Shown here one piece after another: positions 15,738 through 36,471 of a stretch of 43,762 nt of DNA (within the stretch, counting starts at the first letter, position 1; every line of letters starts with the position of its first letter). The notes under the pieces were generated by a model. The model made no database searches. It saw only the letters and a list, made by a program, of their open reading frames with translations, and was not told the origin of the DNA. Origin of the DNA: a virus (taxonomy: Duplodnaviria; Caudoviricetes); the IMG/VR virus record IMGVR_UViG_3300011339_000336, positions 1 to 43,762 of that record; one strand, given 5' to 3'. Position numbers and translations under genes: made by a program.

Positions 15738-15878
15738 TTACATTTTCTTTTTGTACATAGTTTTTTTAGCAACCATAGTTTTTTTGGTATCCATCATTTT
15801 TTTAGCTGGAGCCATTTTAGACATAGGTGCTTTGGGTTCAGGTTTCTGACCCATTTCTTTTCTTTTTTCGTATCCCAT
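15738..15878 (-). CDS. Small Met/Lys-rich protein (46 aa, not in ORF track)
   Basis: AAGGAG SD; MGYEKRKEMGQKPEPKAPMSKMAPAKKMMDTKKTMVAKKTMYKKKM. Confidence 0.7.
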   Translation of the reverse strand: MGYEKRKEMGQKPEPKAPMSKMAPAKKMMDTKKTMVAKKTMYKKKM

Positions 15879-15892
15879 AATTTACTCCTTAA

Positions 15893-15923
15893 TAAAAAGA
15901 ACCCCCTCTTTTTAGGGAGGGGG
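15893..15923 (-). terminator. Intrinsic terminator after major capsid gene
   Basis: CCCCCTC/GAGGGGG stem followed by TTCTTTTTA. Confidence 0.7.
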
Positions 15924-24624: not shown

Positions 24625-24774
24625 TTACTTGTAGCCAGCCACTGGCTTCTTGTTGACTTTAGACATTTTGTCTTTTATCATTTTTGCCATGTCTTTTTTA
24701 TCTTGGATTTTGTCAGCAGCCTTAGTCATCATCATGCCTTTTTTGGCTGGCATGGATTTCTTTTTGGTAACCAT
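24625..24774 (-). CDS. Small Met/Lys-rich protein, first gene of the late operon (49 aa, not in ORF track)
   Basis: AAAGGA SD; MVTKKKSMPAKKGMMMTKAADKIQDKKDMAKMIKDKMSKVNKKPVAGYK. Confidence 0.7.
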   Translation of the reverse strand: MVTKKKSMPAKKGMMMTKAADKIQDKKDMAKMIKDKMSKVNKKPVAGYK

Positions 24775-24805
24775 AGTTCTATCCTTTAGAAAAGTAAATT
24801 GAGGG

Positions 24806-24888
24806 TGTAAGTACTCGCTGCACTAGGTATCCAACGCTTTACTGTTGGTGTTCACGGGCGAAACCGCCCAGCATCCGCTTTCCTTACA
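24806..24888 (-). ncRNA. Structured cis-regulatory RNA motif, copy 1
   Basis: UGUAAG-GAAAGCGGAUG-CUGGG...CCUAG-UGCAGCGAGUA-CUUACA; same core as 36224-36288 with different but pairing stems. Confidence 0.7.
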
Positions 24889-24893
24889 GGTGT

Positions 24894-24922
24894 ACTGTAT
24901 CATCCTTTTAAGATTTTTACAA
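24894..24922 (-). promoter_or_regulatory. Sigma70-type promoter for the late arm
   Basis: TTGTAA-17 nt-TACAGT with extended -10 TG; predicted +1 falls at the 5' end of the RNA motif. Confidence 0.6.
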
Positions 24923-25707: not shown

Positions 25708-25917
25708 AATTAGCCCCCCGCCTTTTGTTCGGGTTGCCACCGCTATGCTCGGCGTAGCCTCGCTTCGCTCTGCACTAACCACGCCAGTCGTCGCTCCGCT
25801 CCTTTGTGGCATGGCTGCGGGCTACGCCTTAGTGCCTTGGCAATCGCTCCGCTCCGCTCCGCGACTACGCCCCTGCGGGGCTTGCCCTCACGCCCGGCTT
25901 TAGTGAGGGGGCTAATT
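25708..25917. other. GC-rich fold-back element A (origin/promoter/ncRNA candidate)
   Basis: 11-bp terminal inverted repeat AATTAGCCCCC/GGGGGCTAATT enclosing multiple GC-GNA-GC mini-hairpins. Confidence 0.65.
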
Positions 25918-25953
25918 CCCCTCAGTTCTCTCAACTCAACTTAGGAGCTAGTT

Positions 25954-26786: not shown

Positions 26787-26911
26787 GGCGCTCAGCCCGG
26801 CAAGCCTGGGGTCACGCGCCAGCAGAGCTGGCACGGGCTTGCGGTGGGCTTCGCCTAATGTTCCAGTCGGGCTGGCTCCCGGCCCTTTGAGGGGGGCCGT
26901 GAGGCTGCGCC
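26787..26911. other. GC-rich multibranch fold-back element B
   Basis: Closing stem GGCG..CAGCC/GGCTG-CGCC; internal stems GCAAGCCTG/CGGGCTTGC, GCCAGC/GCTGGC, GGC-TTC-GCC, CGGCCC/GGGCCG. Confidence 0.6.
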
Positions 26912-26942
26912 CTCTTGTTTGTTTTTAACTTAGGAGTTAACT

Positions 26943-27800: not shown

Positions 27801-29579
27801 ATGCTAACAAGTGGCATTGAGGTAATGAAATATGTGCGGGCAAGTGCTGGTAGGGCTGGACTTTCCGTAGTATTTGAGGATGTTAACCAACCTAAGCATA
27901 ATGGAAGCACTATCTATCTGCCTAGAATTACAGCATCCACAACAATACAAGAGTTAAAGCAACTCATGGCATCTACTGACCACGAGGTTGCCCATGACCG
28001 TTTTAGTTGCTTTGATCTAATCAAAGAAAAGAATCTTCCTTCTACCAATCCACTTATGTTTGTCTGGAATCTTCTTGAAGATTCTAGGATTAACATGATT
28101 GAATCTAAAGAGTATGAAGGTTTTAGAGAAAACTGGGATGAATGCGGTGCTGAAGTAATCTCAGAGATTCTTAAACGAGCTAAAAAAGATGTTACACCTA
28201 TCTCTAAGCTTATTACTTCTTTAATCCATTGGGAAAGTCAAATCTCAGCTAGTAGCTTTCCGTTAGTGCAACTAGCTACTAACAAATTTACTCCTGACAA
28301 AACAATAACAAATGTTCTTAATAACTATTCTGACCGCCTTATTCATTGCCACAGTATCTTAAACAAACGCAAAGGTTCTCAATCTACTTTTGATTTAGCT
28401 TACGACATACTCACTGAGTTAAAAAGTAGTATGAAAGAAGAGTTTCAATTACCTACAAAACCCAAATCTACTGGAGATGGTAAATCTGATGGAACTACTG
28501 ATGATGCAAAAGGCAAAACATCTAAACCAAGTGACACTAAAACTGATGGTGAAGGTAAACTTGTAGATTCTGAAGAGTATAAAATAATTGAAATAGAACT
28601 AACTCAAGAGGATATTGATAAATACTCTGTAACTATACCTGAAGACAAAACAGGTATGAGTAAAACTGGTATCAATATTAAACCTTTTGCAGAAACATAT
28701 GATGATTGGAGTTTAACTGATTACAACAAGTTTGTTGTAGTTAACTATCCTAAAACTATAGGTGATTCACAATATTTTCATAAAGAACCAAGTTTTACAA
28801 AAGTATATAAAGATAGGGTAGAAAAACATCTAATTTCTCAAGAAAACTTTGCTCAACAAGTTCGTAAACTCATTCAAGTTAGATCTAGAGTACAAACACA
28901 ATACGGCACTAAAAAAGGCAAACTAGATCAATCTAGGTTATCTCGTATTTGTTTTGATGCTCCTGGATTTAATGAGCGTGTGTTTAAAACTAAAATTGAA
29001 AATAAAACTCTTGATGCTGCAATCACAGTTCTTGTAGATATGTCTGGCTCAATGGGTGGAGATAAAGTATTTAATGCTTTAGCTTCAACAAAACTAGTCA
29101 ATGAGGTTTGTTCTACCCTTAACATTCCATTGGAAATACTTGGTTTTACTGATGTTAATGAGTCTGGTAAAGAATCTGATCCACTGATGTTTGTATACAA
29201 AAGCTTTTCTGACTTTAAAGTAAACAATGATTCTTTAGAAGAATACTTTTCAATGTCTAGCAGGTACATGGAAGGCAATCCTGACGGAGAAAATATCTTA
29301 TGGGCATATGATCGTCTTGTTAAACGTAAGGAAAAGAAAAGAATACTAATTGTTATGTCTGATGGCAGTCCTGCTGCTAGTAGAGGTATGCGAGGTATAT
29401 CTACTTTTACTCACAAAGTTATTGAGGAGATTGAAAAAGCTAAGTTAGTTGACATTTATGGTTTAGGACTATGCAGTGATTCTGTTAAAGATTACTACAA
29501 ATCACATAGCATAGTTAACGAACCACAAAACATTCCCAGCAAGTTGATTGAGTTAATAGAAAGGAAAATTTTAGTATGA
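27801..29579 (+). CDS. CobT-like VWA-domain protein with N-terminal HExxH
   Basis: DHEVAH and WNLLEDSRI in the N-terminus; low-complexity linker; GKLD..RL, MIDAS DMSGSMG, N.DGE, LIVMSDG.P. Confidence 0.85.
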   Translation: MLTSGIEVMKYVRASAGRAGLSVVFEDVNQPKHNGSTIYLPRITASTTIQELKQLMASTDHEVAHDRFSCFDLIKEKNLPSTNPLMFVWNLLEDSRINMIESKEYEGFRENWDECGAEVISEILKRAKKDVTPISKLITSLIHWESQISASSFPLVQLATNKFTPDKTITNVLNNYSDRLIHCHSILNKRKGSQSTFDLAYDILTELKSSMKEEFQLPTKPKSTGDGKSDGTTDDAKGKTSKPSDTKTDGEGKLVDSEEYKIIEIELTQEDIDKYSVTIPEDKTGMSKTGINIKPFAETYDDWSLTDYNKFVVVNYPKTIGDSQYFHKEPSFTKVYKDRVEKHLISQENFAQQVRKLIQVRSRVQTQYGTKKGKLDQSRLSRICFDAPGFNERVFKTKIENKTLDAAITVLVDMSGSMGGDKVFNALASTKLVNEVCSTLNIPLEILGFTDVNESGKESDPLMFVYKSFSDFKVNNDSLEEYFSMSSRYMEGNPDGENILWAYDRLVKRKEKKRILIVMSDGSPAASRGMRGISTFTHKVIEEIEKAKLVDIYGLGLCSDSVKDYYKSHSIVNEPQNIPSKLIELIERKILV

Positions 29580-30724
29580 CTACTATTGCTGTAGCAACAC
29601 CAACAACTTCTACTCCTAAAGTAGAAGACCTTGTTAAGAAAGCTATTAAAGAAGCTTTAGACAAACGTAAGATTGCTGAAGTGTATAAGGAAACATTTCC
29701 TGAAGACACAACAGCAAGCACAGCGTTTGAACCTGTAGCAAAACCATTACCTTTAAAATTCGTTGCATTGGCTTTTAACCAAGTTATGTTCTCAGAACTT
29801 ATTAGTAATCCTAGCACTCACGCACATGATGACTTTCCTGTCACTACTTTCCACGATTACAAGTGGGATGAACGTGTAGCTTCATTTGTTCCTAGTATCA
29901 ATCCTGATTACGTCATTGATGCGGAAATTGCATCTAACATTCTTAGGGCTTGGGAGCTTAATGAAAAAGTGCTTTGCTTTGGTCCTACAGGTGCTGGTAA
30001 ATCTAGTCTTATTGAGCAGCTATGTGCTTTGACCAATCGTCCATTCGTTCGTATCAATTGCACTGGAGACATGGATTCGTCTATGATCTTTGGTCAACTA
30101 ACAGCTAAAGATGGTTCAACAATCTGGGTTGATGGTGCTGTTACCGATGCTGTCAAGTATGGTGCAGTGTTTGCTTGGGATGAGTGGGACGTAACACCTC
30201 CTGAAATTTCTATGGGTCTACAGTGGCTACTAGAAGACGAAGGCAAGCTCTTTCTTAAAGAAATGCCCGGTAGCACTAAAGACAAGCAAATCACTCCACA
30301 CGAGCATTTCAGGCTTGTAGCTATTGGCAATACACAAGGCCAAGGTGATGACACAGGAGCACACGCAGGTACTAACGTACAAAACTCAGCTACTTTAGAT
30401 CGCTTTGGTACAGCAGTCTACATTGGCTATCTTGATCCTGCTATTGAGGAAAAGATGCTTACAAACAAGTGGGGTAGGGTAATCACTGGTAAAACAGCTA
30501 AGGAACTTGTTAAACTCGCCAACCTTGTCCGTCAAGGCTACCAAGCTGGACAGTTCAACTTAACCATCTCTCCTAGGTCACTGTTTAGCATCTGCAAGAA
30601 GCTATCACATGGTTCTACCTTAAAGAAAGCTTACAAAGTGGTTTACCTTAACAAGCTCAATGACACACAACGCAAAGTTGCTGACGAGCTATTTATCAAA
30701 ATTTATGGCAAAGACGTAACCTAA
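29576..30724 (+). CDS. CobS-like MoxR-family AAA+ ATPase
   Basis: Walker A GPTGAGKS, Walker B FAWDEWD, LQWLLE, GNT.G.GD, QN.ATLDRF, ISPR sensor 2. Confidence 0.9.
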   Translation: MTTIAVATPTTSTPKVEDLVKKAIKEALDKRKIAEVYKETFPEDTTASTAFEPVAKPLPLKFVALAFNQVMFSELISNPSTHAHDDFPVTTFHDYKWDERVASFVPSINPDYVIDAEIASNILRAWELNEKVLCFGPTGAGKSSLIEQLCALTNRPFVRINCTGDMDSSMIFGQLTAKDGSTIWVDGAVTDAVKYGAVFAWDEWDVTPPEISMGLQWLLEDEGKLFLKEMPGSTKDKQITPHEHFRLVAIGNTQGQGDDTGAHAGTNVQNSATLDRFGTAVYIGYLDPAIEEKMLTNKWGRVITGKTAKELVKLANLVRQGYQAGQFNLTISPRSLFSICKKLSHGSTLKKAYKVVYLNKLNDTQRKVADELFIKIYGKDVT

Positions 30725-33525: not shown

Positions 33526-35466
33526 ATGTCATCACTTACACCAAACTGCATAGCCATTGACGTAGAAACTACGATGCTTGGCAATGAAGACATAGGGTTA
33601 TCACATCCTATGTACGGCCCTAACTATGTTGTTCTTTTTGGGTCAACCAACGTACTTGGTGATTCAATAGTTACTGACGACCCAACTACTTTTCACAAAA
33701 CAATTGCAAGCCATACAAACACACTAGTTTGTGGTCATAACATATCGTTTGATCTTATGTATTTGTATAGGTATGGATCGTTAAAACATACTTTGCAAAA
33801 CTATAAACTGTGGGACACACAATTAGCAGAATACATCCTGTCTGGTCAACGTACTAAGTTTTCTAGCTTAGATGAGTTGTCTATTAAATATGGCTGTCCT
33901 GTCAAAGATGACAAGATTACTGCGTACTTTAAAGCAGGTATTGGGTCTGACAAAATTCCTCGTGAAGAACTTGAACCCTACTTACACAGAGACTTAAAGA
34001 ACACTTGGTCTATTGCTATTAAACAGTATGAAATTGCAGAACGTCAAGGACAACTAGCTTTGATTCAAAGTCAAATGCAAGCATTGCATGGCACAACAGA
34101 AATGATGTACAACGGCTTGCACATTGATAAGAAACGATTAGATGCTTACACAGTAGAAGTTGTTGACAGTTTTGTTGATGTCAAATTAAATCTTGAGAAA
34201 CTTGTAGCGGAATTAATTGAAGACATTAACAGTCCTAAACAATGGAGTCAGTTTTTCTTTGGTGGTACTAAACGTGTCAAAGTCAAAGAAGAGGTAGGTG
34301 TTTACAAGAACGGCAATACCAAATACAAACTTGTAGAAAAGTCTGTAACAATTAAACCTGCTATTGCTTATGTTCCTGATCCTGACAAAGTATCTGCAAA
34401 AACAAAGCAAGTGTCAGTTGACGAATCTGTGCTTAGCGATATGCTTAATCACACTTTTAAACCTGACATTGTTGCTATCATTAAAGCGTTAATGAAATAT
34501 CGTGAGTTATCTAAGCAGTTATCAACGTACGTACAAGGTCTAAGCAAGCACGTTATTCATGATTTTATTTATGGCAAGCTTAATCACACAGCTACAATCA
34601 CAGGTCGGTTGTCTTCAACTAACCCTAATTTACAAAATATTAGTAATAACCCTATAAAACAAATCTTCGATTCCCGTTATAGTGGAGGACTTATTGTTGA
34701 GGTTGACTTTAACCAGCTTGAAGTAGTTGCATTAGCCCATGTTACTAGAGACAAACAACTTATCGCAGACATCTCTGGTGGAGCAGACATCCACTCAGAA
34801 CTTTATAAAGATATGTTTGGAAAATATCCAACAAAAGAAGAACGCAAGCCCTTTAAATCACGAACCTTTCAACTCATATACGGTGCAGGTGCTAAAGCTA
34901 TCAGCAAACAAGCAGGGTGCAGCATTGAAGAAGCTAAAAAATTTATTGATGTGTTTTACACTCGCTACCCAGATGTGGCTAGGTGGCATGAAGAATTTGC
35001 ACACGACATTGAGTCGTCATCAAAGCATTTAACAGATTCAACAGGTTTAATGGAGAAATTTAAAACGTGTGTGTGGGTCACTGAAACAGGTCGTAGATTT
35101 ACGTTTGCTGAGTACTATAGCAAAAATACTTGGTCACCAAAAATGTACAACTTTAGTCCTACAGAAATGAAGAATTATCCAATTCAAGGTTTAGCTACTG
35201 GAGATATTGTACCTATGATGGTAGGTGTTATCTTTGAGAAGCTAAAGGGCAGAGAAGGCATCAAGATGGTTAACACTATCCATGACTCTCTAATGTTTGA
35301 CGTAAGAGCTGATTTAGCAGCAGATTTTATATTGGAGGTAACAGATATTCTAAAAGATACGGACAAGTATTTCTTAGAGACATTTAAAACGCCGTTGGCC
35401 CTAAAGCTCAATGCAGGGGCTTCACTCGGTACTAATTGGTACAACATGGAAGAAGTTAGCCTATGA
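33526..35466 (+). CDS. polA: Family A DNA polymerase with 3'-5' exonuclease
   Basis: ExoI IDVET, GHN..FD; TGRLSS.NPNLQN; motif A DFNQLE; motif B KSRTFQLIYG; motif C IHDS. Confidence 0.95.
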   Translation: MSSLTPNCIAIDVETTMLGNEDIGLSHPMYGPNYVVLFGSTNVLGDSIVTDDPTTFHKTIASHTNTLVCGHNISFDLMYLYRYGSLKHTLQNYKLWDTQLAEYILSGQRTKFSSLDELSIKYGCPVKDDKITAYFKAGIGSDKIPREELEPYLHRDLKNTWSIAIKQYEIAERQGQLALIQSQMQALHGTTEMMYNGLHIDKKRLDAYTVEVVDSFVDVKLNLEKLVAELIEDINSPKQWSQFFFGGTKRVKVKEEVGVYKNGNTKYKLVEKSVTIKPAIAYVPDPDKVSAKTKQVSVDESVLSDMLNHTFKPDIVAIIKALMKYRELSKQLSTYVQGLSKHVIHDFIYGKLNHTATITGRLSSTNPNLQNISNNPIKQIFDSRYSGGLIVEVDFNQLEVVALAHVTRDKQLIADISGGADIHSELYKDMFGKYPTKEERKPFKSRTFQLIYGAGAKAISKQAGCSIEEAKKFIDVFYTRYPDVARWHEEFAHDIESSSKHLTDSTGLMEKFKTCVWVTETGRRFTFAEYYSKNTWSPKMYNFSPTEMKNYPIQGLATGDIVPMMVGVIFEKLKGREGIKMVNTIHDSLMFDVRADLAADFILEVTDILKDTDKYFLETFKTPLALKLNAGASLGTNWYNMEEVSL

Positions 35467-36014
35467 CAATGATGACAGGTATTGTGGAAGCAATGTCCAC
35501 AAAAGACGTAACTACTAAGTTTGGCGTTAAACCAACTTACTCAATTAAGATCAACGGGGGTTGGGTTAAATGTGGGTTTAAAAACCCTGAAGTACAAGTT
35601 GGCTATGAAGTTGAATTTGATGGTACTACTGGTTCCTATGGCGTTGAGACTAAGAAAATAGAGATTCTTAAACGCTCAGCAGCAACCACAGCAGCGGTGT
35701 CAACCGCTGTTACTAGTACCGCTGCGGCTCCCAAAGCCGCAAGCGGCTACAGCAGCTACAAAGAAAAGGTATTCCCCATTCCAGCATTACATGGTGACCG
35801 GGCAATCGTTCGTCAGAACGCACTAGCTCGTGCTACCGACTTGTATATTGCTGCTCGTGGTGGTAAGCCCTTTGAGTTAGAAGCATCAACTCTTAACCTA
35901 GTCATTAGCTTTGCTCGTAAGTTTGAAGCTTACACAGCAGGTGATCTTGACTTGGCAGAAGTGATGGAAGAAGACGCAGCCGAATTAGATAAACAAACTG
36001 ATATTCAATTTTAA
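35463..36014 (+). CDS. Putative single-stranded DNA-binding protein
   Basis: OB-fold-like N-terminus; IVRQNAL motif; acidic tail ending in Phe (DKQTDIQF); sits between polymerase and exonuclease. Confidence 0.55.
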   Translation: MTMMTGIVEAMSTKDVTTKFGVKPTYSIKINGGWVKCGFKNPEVQVGYEVEFDGTTGSYGVETKKIEILKRSAATTAAVSTAVTSTAAAPKAASGYSSYKEKVFPIPALHGDRAIVRQNALARATDLYIAARGGKPFELEASTLNLVISFARKFEAYTAGDLDLAEVMEEDAAELDKQTDIQF

Positions 36015-36024
36015 GGAGTTAGTT

Positions 36025-36216
36025 ATGGAACAAGTTAAACGTGGTCGTGGTCGTCCCCCCAAAGCCAAATCTATGGCAACAAACCCTACTCCTGTTGAAA
36101 AGGATGTTTTACTAAGTTTGATCCAGCAAAAGTTTATGGATACCTACGGGTTTGCTACAACTGAAGCTCAATCAAAGATGTTTCTATTGACTCTTGTAGC
36201 TCAAGTAGAACTGTAA
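36025..36216 (+). CDS. Small AT-hook protein
   Basis: KRGRGRPPK at the N-terminus; AAGGAG SD. Confidence 0.7.
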   Translation: MEQVKRGRGRPPKAKSMATNPTPVEKDVLLSLIQQKFMDTYGFATTEAQSKMFLLTLVAQVEL

Positions 36217-36223
36217 GTTTTTA

Positions 36224-36288
36224 GGGGGGAAAGCAGATGCTGCGTAGTGCCGTCACGGACTCTAGAGCGCAGTGCAGCGAGTACCCCC
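36224..36288 (+). ncRNA. Structured cis-regulatory RNA motif, copy 2
   Basis: GGGGG-GAAAGCAGAUG-CUGCG...CGCAG-UGCAGCGAGUA-CCCCC, just upstream of the AGGA SD of 36307. Confidence 0.7.
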
Positions 36289-36306
36289 ACCTTTTTAGGA
36301 ACAATC

Positions 36307-36471
36307 ATGGTTATTAAAGACAAACAAGAAGCTGTTTACTTTATGTGTACCCTTATTAAGGACTTAGAAATGCTTAAAAGGGGTGAATGGATTCCTGATG
36401 AAGACTCTACCCAAGCATCTATAGATGCAGCAGATGCAATTCTTAAATACATCTGGGACAAACTTCCATGA
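36307..36471 (+). CDS. Hypothetical protein
   Basis: Start moved to ATG 36307 (TAGGA SD); DLEML..GEW.PD.DS..AS. Confidence 0.65.
   Translation: MVIKDKQEAVYFMCTLIKDLEMLKRGEWIPDEDSTQASIDAADAILKYIWDKLP

Follow-up and report, generated by a model that had tools for sequence, protein, structure and literature searches.

The window and the two copies of the motif

The window, that is, the whole stretch of 43,762 nucleotides analysed here and the entire virus record (CheckV completeness of 96%), carries portal, terminase and capsid genes on its minus strand, and primase, helicase, polymerase and nuclease genes on its plus strand. No RNA polymerase family is matched among the 58 window ORFs scanned and no antiterminator family among the ORFs scanned, in agreement with the original prediction, which described a phage without an RNA polymerase or a recognizable antiterminator. 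The two copies of a structured RNA motif that it placed on opposite strands are both present as described: the core of copy 1 (minus strand) consists of GAAAGCGGATG at 24882-24872 and TGCAGCGAGTA at 24822-24812, while that of copy 2 (plus strand) occupies 36229-36239 and 36273-36283. The two-part core pattern, whose gap limit took in copy 2 only, occurs in none of 100 shuffles. A covariance model of 100 family members, with both window copies in its seed, finds only these two copies (68 and 55 bits) in the window; the next-best match scores 11 bits (E 0.35), and no third copy is found.

Copy 1 precedes the first minus-strand ORF and follows a -35-like hexamer TTGTAA (24917..24922, minus; 4/6 match, below the promoter scan threshold) and an extended -10 element TG-n-TACAGT (24894..24902, minus; score 9 with the TG bonus). 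The promoter originally written as TTGTAA-17-TACAGT is there (24922-24917 and 24899-24894, with the extended TG), although at 8/12 it lies below the listing threshold of the scan (9/12), and canonical spacing is predicted to put +1 on G24887. This G, the predicted 5' end of the RNA, opens the 5' strand of helix P1 (GUAAG, 24883..24887), which is followed on the minus strand by the 5' strand of the stalk (24872..24882), comprising GAAA of loop E, GC of a 2-bp helix and RRAUK of an inner loop, by P2 with a variable head of two hairpins (24823..24871; the same head occurs in L661, L663, L664 and L665), by the 3' strand of the stalk (YGNA of the inner loop, GC and RAGUA of loop E; 24812..24822), by the 3' strand of P1 (CUUAC, 24807..24811) and by an RCC tail (ACCC, 24803..24806), a putative 3' signal of RNase P type. 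The outer helix had been drawn as UGUAAG/CUUACA; five of its pairs (GUAAG/CUUAC) stand, followed by the ACCC tail, whereas the sixth, a U-A pair, sets the -1 base against the A of the tail. Likewise, only three pairs of the proposed inner helix are reliable (CUG/UAG), since a GGGCG/CGCCC hairpin competes for the GG that follows. A Shine-Dalgarno (SD) sequence AAGGA (24786-24782) and the first late ORF (24774-24625, 49 aa, no family match) come next (24625..24786, minus), and the ATG at 24774 lies 32 nt past the helix, close to the 30 nt given originally.

Copy 2 (36224..36292, plus) has the same stalk closed by P1 GGGGG/CCCCC, a tail ACCU and a head whose 3' bulge lies within the palindrome CUCUAGAG. 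It is located in the replication module, starting 7 nt past the stop codon of ORF 36025-36216, with the next ATG at 36307. The upstream region (35463..36216, plus) encodes a probable SSB (183 aa), which has an acidic tail ending in Phe and matches no named family, and a 63-aa AT-hook ORF.

Structure and covariation of the stalk

The motif is a real folded RNA, namely a hairpin of 65-95 nt in which a fixed stalk (P1, loop E, the 2-bp helix, the inner loop and P2) carries a variable head. As single-sequence folding of copies 1 and 2 is not significant (z of -0.19 and -1.80), its proof is comparative. The outer helix P1 lay outside the search pattern used to collect the copies, and its first four positions pair in 116, 114, 115 and 108 of 116 unique copies. 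In an alignment of 100 copies, chosen so that each head cluster is represented once if this can be done, 93.2% of the helix cells are paired and covariation reaches 0.384, compared with 0.118 ± 0.009 in shuffled alignments (a test inflated by relatedness among the copies) and at most 0.124 in slid ones. The model search and covariation check that had been proposed thus return strong outer-helix covariation among homologues, and the strand named originally is fixed, because G-U combinations at helix positions far exceed A-C combinations (43 versus 2).

In relaxed scans, 103 of 106 rows show GAAA opposed to RAGUA, the remaining three resembling chance matches in coding sequence, and GC faces GC in 158 of 160. 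A scan for the outer part of the stalk alone yields 109 copies, 32 of which are without the inner loop; the 2-bp helix closing loop E pairs in 107 of these 109 stalks by seven pair types, which fixes the register of loop E. In the inner loop RRAUK/YGNA, invariance is confined to A,U and G,A, and many other changes are tolerated. By the consensus of these motifs, we take the stalk modules to be bulged-G and 5S-loop-E-like. GAA opposite AGUA between two helices, the hallmark of the bulged-G module of sarcin-ricin and loop E type, is present, and the family alignment (GAAA/RAGUA closed by the 2-bp helix) supports the original reading of this element; the likeness is confined to the structural module, whose geometry is predicted, and the motif has no GAGA tetraloop. 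Neither a conserved pseudoknot nor a second docking domain is found across the motif copies.

Distribution and genomic context

An exact match to the 22-base core is carried by about 620 stretches of IMG/VR (an estimate from 13 of 64 parts) and by about 580 metagenome stretches, whereas the GTDB collection has only 17 such stretches. Nine of the latter score at least 44 bits with the covariance model and seven at most 38 bits, while L130, which has no score of its own, is nearly identical to L129; eight of the ten good GTDB copies are recorded as Burkholderiales. Among 151 host-family genomes the motif is found in the seed genome only. Given its abundance in IMG/VR and metagenomes and its rarity in GTDB and host-family genomes, the motif is a phage element, probably of phages of Burkholderiales. 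BLAST against cultured phages gives only short chance matches. A record usually holds one copy (28/30) and occasionally two (2/30).

The following counts refer to 335 non-redundant copies, a set without the seven weak genome matches, copies with fewer than three P1 pairs and copies near locus ends. In as many as 275, no more than 13 nt separate the start of the motif from a stop codon (3-9 nt in 247 of them), often within replication modules. The upstream protein matches an SSB or ssDNA-annealing family in 19 of 66 cases and no family in 28, whereas the downstream proteins are mixed, with a head or packaging family in one of 61. The commonest gene behind the motif is phrog_1123 (about 100 aa, function unknown), which accounts for 10 of the 61 downstream ORFs. 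In 128 of 202 copies, an SD with a start codon comes no more than 48 nt later (median 20 nt). A reading as stop-codon read-through is rejected, with the motif in frame in only 15 of 243 cases and a spacer that is not fixed modulo 3.

Copy 1 belongs to a promoter-first minority. Of 60 copies that do not follow a stop codon, 12 show a promoter-like site no more than 40 nt away; ten of these sites end 6-8 nt before the G of P1, and six copies show a perfect TTGACA with a -10 element ending 7-8 nt before that G. AU-rich composition contributes to this signal, since 21 of the 275 post-stop copies reach the same promoter score through -10-like hexamers. The head of copy 1 recurs in four other phage contigs, three times behind a stop codon and never before late genes, and the motif is found in none of 80 loci carrying a homologue of the second late gene, where gene order may differ. 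A position at the 5' end of the late transcript, as originally claimed, is likely for copy 1 but is not a general trait of the family, and the accompanying proposal of an element that acts in cis on the late operon in particular (a put/nut-like antiterminator, an operator or a riboswitch) is not supported, most copies lying behind stop codons inside operons.

A tRNA adjoins the motif in three of 300 copies, joined to one of them by an ACCA tail, and in 38 of 300 another hairpin cassette is located no more than 300 nt away. tRNA-Gly(TCC) or tRNA-Thr(TGT) stands directly behind the motif or its array in L090, L220, L337 and L210. An A-run with a GC hairpin is located right behind the motif in L002, L003, L004, L081, L082, L109, L111 and L324; this is an opposite-strand terminator, which would shield the motif from antisense transcription.

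Variable heads

The head at the apex of the stalk is itself a module that is conserved and covaries. Among the 335 copies there are 138 head clusters, and of 137 head pairs that are at least 85% identical, 121 have unrelated 150-nt flanks on both sides. A head family of 12 members is 99.5% paired, with both-side changes in both of its hairpins, and heads also cross into the stalk type with loop E only. The variable loops, originally called unrelated, are thus conserved families and not filler. Part of this sharing could result from gene conversion between the 11-nt cores. A pattern for the head of copy 1 gives nine matches, four in a motif stalk and five judged to be chance matches in coding sequence (one of which was checked); the L660 group, considered as a second home of this head, is coding sequence and was rejected. 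For the head of copy 2, 19 of 22 matches lie inside a motif stalk.

The commonest defined head shape is a stem with a bulge of at least 5 nt on its 3' side (92/294). In the family of copy 2, CUCUAGAG is found in 9 of 20 members, CUCCGGAG in 7 and the intermediate CUCUGGAG in 1, a central UA/CG/UG exchange which is hard to explain by intramolecular pairing. A 4-nt palindrome is present in 29 of 86 3' bulges, compared with about 16 in shuffled sequences (per cluster 20.8/55 versus 9.5 ± 2.4), a signal that was noticed post hoc and is not replicated in the loop-E-only set (2 of 7 bulges versus 1.4 expected); hairpin loops and 5' bulges show no palindrome enrichment over shuffles, and the head of copy 1 has no such palindrome. 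Several non-palindromic 3' bulges begin with GGA (e.g., CAAGGAUAG), as in the heads of L010, L204, L057, L118 and their kin, and are similar in this to CsrA/RsmA sites.

Ends of the motif

In 281 of the 335 non-redundant copies, P1 is followed immediately by the sequence RCC, which has a background of 0.035 per position and shifts with the length of P1; this helix extends only 4-6 bp before loop E. Among these 281 copies, the first base is G in 266 and position -2 is A or U in 265, the leader upstream of P1 being AU-rich, while position -1 is C in 180, compared with U in 18 of 30 host tRNAs. The tail mostly reads ACCU or ACCC with its fourth base, and ACCA in only 31 copies. It is retained in 59 of 78 copies without a downstream start, and it is kept with a strong SD following (114/132) as well as without one (162/195), so that a role as anti-SD is rejected. 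Promoter-first copies carry the tail in 5 of 10 cases versus 243 of 275 post-stop copies, a loss that is not robust, as two of the five 'losses' still show ACC.

For RNase P, pairing of RCCA with the RNase P RNA, the G at +1 and leader contacts are described in the accessible text of PMC11143913, and a C at -1 can shift cleavage according to that of PMC12710915. C4 RNA, a phage antisense RNA, is an RNase P product (accessible text of PMC5320573). Six Rfam C4 copies from Cupriavidus have an AU-rich leader and a G-rich P1, most of them ending in ACCC, and the host 4.5S RNA ends in its stem followed by ACC in one of three genomes and by UACC in another. By these features of sequence, the ends of the motif resemble an RNase P substrate, and RNase P probably cuts just before the first G of P1. 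The predominance of C at -1, the rarity of ACCA tails and the shortness of P1 count against this reading.

Proposed function and alternative explanations

The preferred reading, to which a probability of roughly 0.38 is given for the whole chain, is a small RNA matured by the RNase P of the host, whose swappable head acts in trans as a decoy for a host protein. Host RNase P would free the hairpin from a polycistronic mRNA by cutting before the first G of P1, while in promoter-first copies such as copy 1 transcription would begin at this G instead. The U/A-rich stretch past the tail would be cut and trimmed back to RCC, as the 3' ends of tRNA and 4.5S RNA are; release on this side is an assumption, against which it counts that an SD and a start codon follow many copies and that no terminator lies 3' of copy 1. 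The non-canonical stalk modules would provide rigidity without a long regular duplex. The head would be the effector, exchanged between phages as in an arms race, which is the weakest step, and about a third of the 3' bulges could dimerise via 4-nt self-complementary words. In the free RNA, the folded head would be the putative decoy in trans. No non-structural phage protein is common to all 17 motif genomes, which points to host machinery. If true, phages would exploit a housekeeping enzyme of the host to deploy a repertoire of RNA effectors built from a constant stalk and exchangeable heads. The family would provide a direct test set for RNA-based counter-defence, and the motif would lend itself, as a compact scaffold of natural origin, to the production of RNAs with defined ends in bacteria.

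A wider version, which we offer tentatively and regard as doubtful, would have phages of Burkholderiales share a plug-and-play small-RNA system of several stalk types, all freed by host RNase P, and well over 100 exchangeable heads. Many of the heads would be self-dimerising, and their role would be to neutralise the defences of the host or mobile elements that compete with the phage. Such a system would be the RNA counterpart of the hotspots for anti-defence proteins, located behind stop codons or in arrays with tRNAs.

The same end signature would also be expected if RNase P, cutting behind the stop codon, served as punctuation in cis and left the downstream mRNA with a stable 5' hairpin cap. 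The RNA would then not be released, the head would tune the stability or translation of the next gene, and copy 1 would cap the late transcript uncut. This explanation, by which, if true, phage operons would be routinely punctuated by RNase P, fits the 247 copies at 3-9 nt past a stop codon and the 128 of 202 with a following SD and start. It appears unlikely, as identical heads precede unrelated genes, a tRNA, another cassette or a hairpin takes the place of a start behind some copies, most start-less copies keep the tail (59/78), and a cap needs no covarying heads.

It seems rather unlikely, too, that the motif is an antisense RNA which, like C4, is matured by RNase P but acts in trans, and whose apical loop and 3' bulge would be two short seeds for mRNAs of the host, of prophages or of rival phages. 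The loop-plus-3'-bulge shape is indeed the commonest defined head and resembles the C4 copies, and head diversity is high, but complement to the heads is not in excess wherever it was sought. There is no cis antisense target within 1.5 kb, and complement within 80 or 250 nt shows no excess (5.23 versus 5.25; 206 copies) in a search in which the C4 controls give cis matches of 7-10 nt. Apart from this controlled search, the target tests are low-powered for seeds of 6-7 nt, with an uncertain host: start regions of the own genome (18 heads, 17 genomes, the 45 longest ORFs of each) yield evenly spread ranks, with one outlier, G181, probably an ORF called across the motif itself; one rRNA operon and 22 tRNAs show no excess complement to heads; two-seed targets in motif loci number 494 against 471 in the control; and the two-seed pattern occurs in 3 of 201 host-family genomes against 7 control matches. 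A 14-nt sense match of L064 to 16S rRNA was treated as chance.

A protein-free processive antiterminator binding RNA polymerase, put- or EAR-like, is quite improbable for the family. Such a role would suit copy 1, which is promoter-first, in a phage where neither an RNA polymerase nor an antiterminator family was matched among the ORFs scanned, and the stalk sequence is nearly invariant; EAR, moreover, lies inside its operon. Antitermination remains conceivable for the window phage itself, because its late operon has an intrinsic-terminator-like hairpin 3' of the major capsid gene (15902..15923, minus). Only about 12 of the 335 copies are promoter-first, however, and copy 1, which is one of them, heads late genes and not early ones; none of 80 late-gene loci carries the motif, and loop-E geometry alone accounts for the invariance of the stalk; the G at +1, the RCC tail, the tRNA neighbours and the conserved heads would be left unexplained. 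The put element, as described in the accessible text of PMC9378689, consists of two adjacent stem-loops after early promoters, whereas the motif is a single stalk.

A riboswitch or a new self-cleaving ribozyme, which the strongly conserved internal loops might suggest, is very improbable, as the downstream genes have no common metabolic theme, no expression platform is seen, the inner loop is absent from 32 of 109 stalks and elsewhere accepts many changes, and a conserved pseudoknot or second docking domain is not found. Readings of the motif as a K-turn, T-box, hairpin ribozyme, CsrA-sponge or CRISPR-repeat were dropped, since the conserved features of these elements appear to be missing.

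Relationship to known RNAs

The motif has no named Rfam family, as originally stated: neither the window nor any of 50 locus scans gives a relevant match to Rfam 15, RF01695 and the ribozyme models included. The C4 antisense RNA of P1/P7 (RF01695), to which the CI RNA of P4 is similar, shares with it the nature of a phage small RNA, an AU-rich leader, a G-rich P1, an ACC tail and an irregular stalk that bears a variable loop and bulge at its top. A few immunity systems with targets in cis, C4 being one and P4 CI another, are known to use phage RNAs matured by RNase P. Maturation by RNase P is shown for C4 (accessible text of PMC5320573) and predicted for the motif. Unlike C4, the motif does not match RF01695, has a stalk with loop E and a RRAUK/YGNA loop, lacks a cis target just downstream, and lies mostly in replication modules with its heads in unrelated loci. 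At its ends the motif would behave as C4 does, though it is no C4 member.

The phage RNA decoys phiTE pseudo-ToxI and the RNA anti-CRISPRs copy host RNA; the motif would likewise be a small phage RNA directed against a host protein, but the single head compared with 151 genomes gave one weak match and no host source. Pre-4.5S (SRP) RNA and the dimeric phage pre-tRNAs, which are RNase P substrates, also have a long G-started hairpin and an RCC-type tail (accessible text of PMC11143913), and the motif abuts tRNAs in the three copies mentioned above; its -1 base is mostly C, its head is variable, and no SRP or tRNA fold is matched in it by Rfam or ARAGORN. HK022 putL/putR are similar in length (about 70 nt) and in the position of copy 1 directly after a promoter; they differ in having two stem-loops after early promoters (accessible text of PMC9378689), the motif being single-stalked and mostly post-stop.

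A literature search found no description of the motif. Its core words are absent from the supplements of PMC2864571, whose gapped alignments could hide them, from the tables of PMC10690425 (Fremin 2023), a comparison that covers the tables and not the alignments, and from the supplement files of PMC8040213 that were searched. The motif may well be among the unnamed candidates of PMC10690425, since IMG/VR intergenic regions were mined for candidate RNAs according to its accessible text. Our verdict is that the motif represents a real, uncharacterised phage RNA family, probably a variant among the phage small RNAs of RNase P type.

Neighbouring cassettes and other features of the window

Several neighbouring cassettes also close with a G-started stem followed by RCC. 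A second cassette type, ACGCAUGRGGAY...AGUCCYCAGYCGU, forms tandem arrays in 16 of 300 neighbourhoods (L016, L030, L037, L053, L068, L104, L107, L147 and L175), its closing stem overlapping P1 of the next cassette; it has no Rfam match. A two-part cassette, in which a GCCMAGCSG...GUGGCG hairpin is followed by a stem ending GUGACCC plus ACC, occurs in 13 of 300 neighbourhoods, downstream of the motif in L045, L147, L223, L226, L282, L287 and L318, with no Rfam match where scanned. The flanks of L030 and L107 contain a GAAUGCGCAGGCUGAUGC...GCCGGAGAUCAGCAC cassette, the two loops of which could pair, and part of this cassette forms the head in L067. Other G-started stems with RCC tails stand directly behind the motif in L066, L283 and L298, in L126 and L284, and in L338, which suggests more stalk types. 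The label 'C4-like' for a neighbouring cassette is wrong on the basis of the Rfam scan and the comparison with C4.

Within the window, the region at about 15738-15878 (minus), past the terminator-like hairpin at 15902-15923, contains an SD and a small ORF rich in Lys and Met, which is similar to the first late ORF. The segments 25725-25925 and 26787-26915 are GC-rich and ORF-poor, with repeated TCGCTCCGCTCC-like words and inverted repeats before the early genes, and are possibly an origin or further RNAs. A gene pair encoding a CobT-like VWA protein and an AAA ATPase is located at 27801-30724 (plus).
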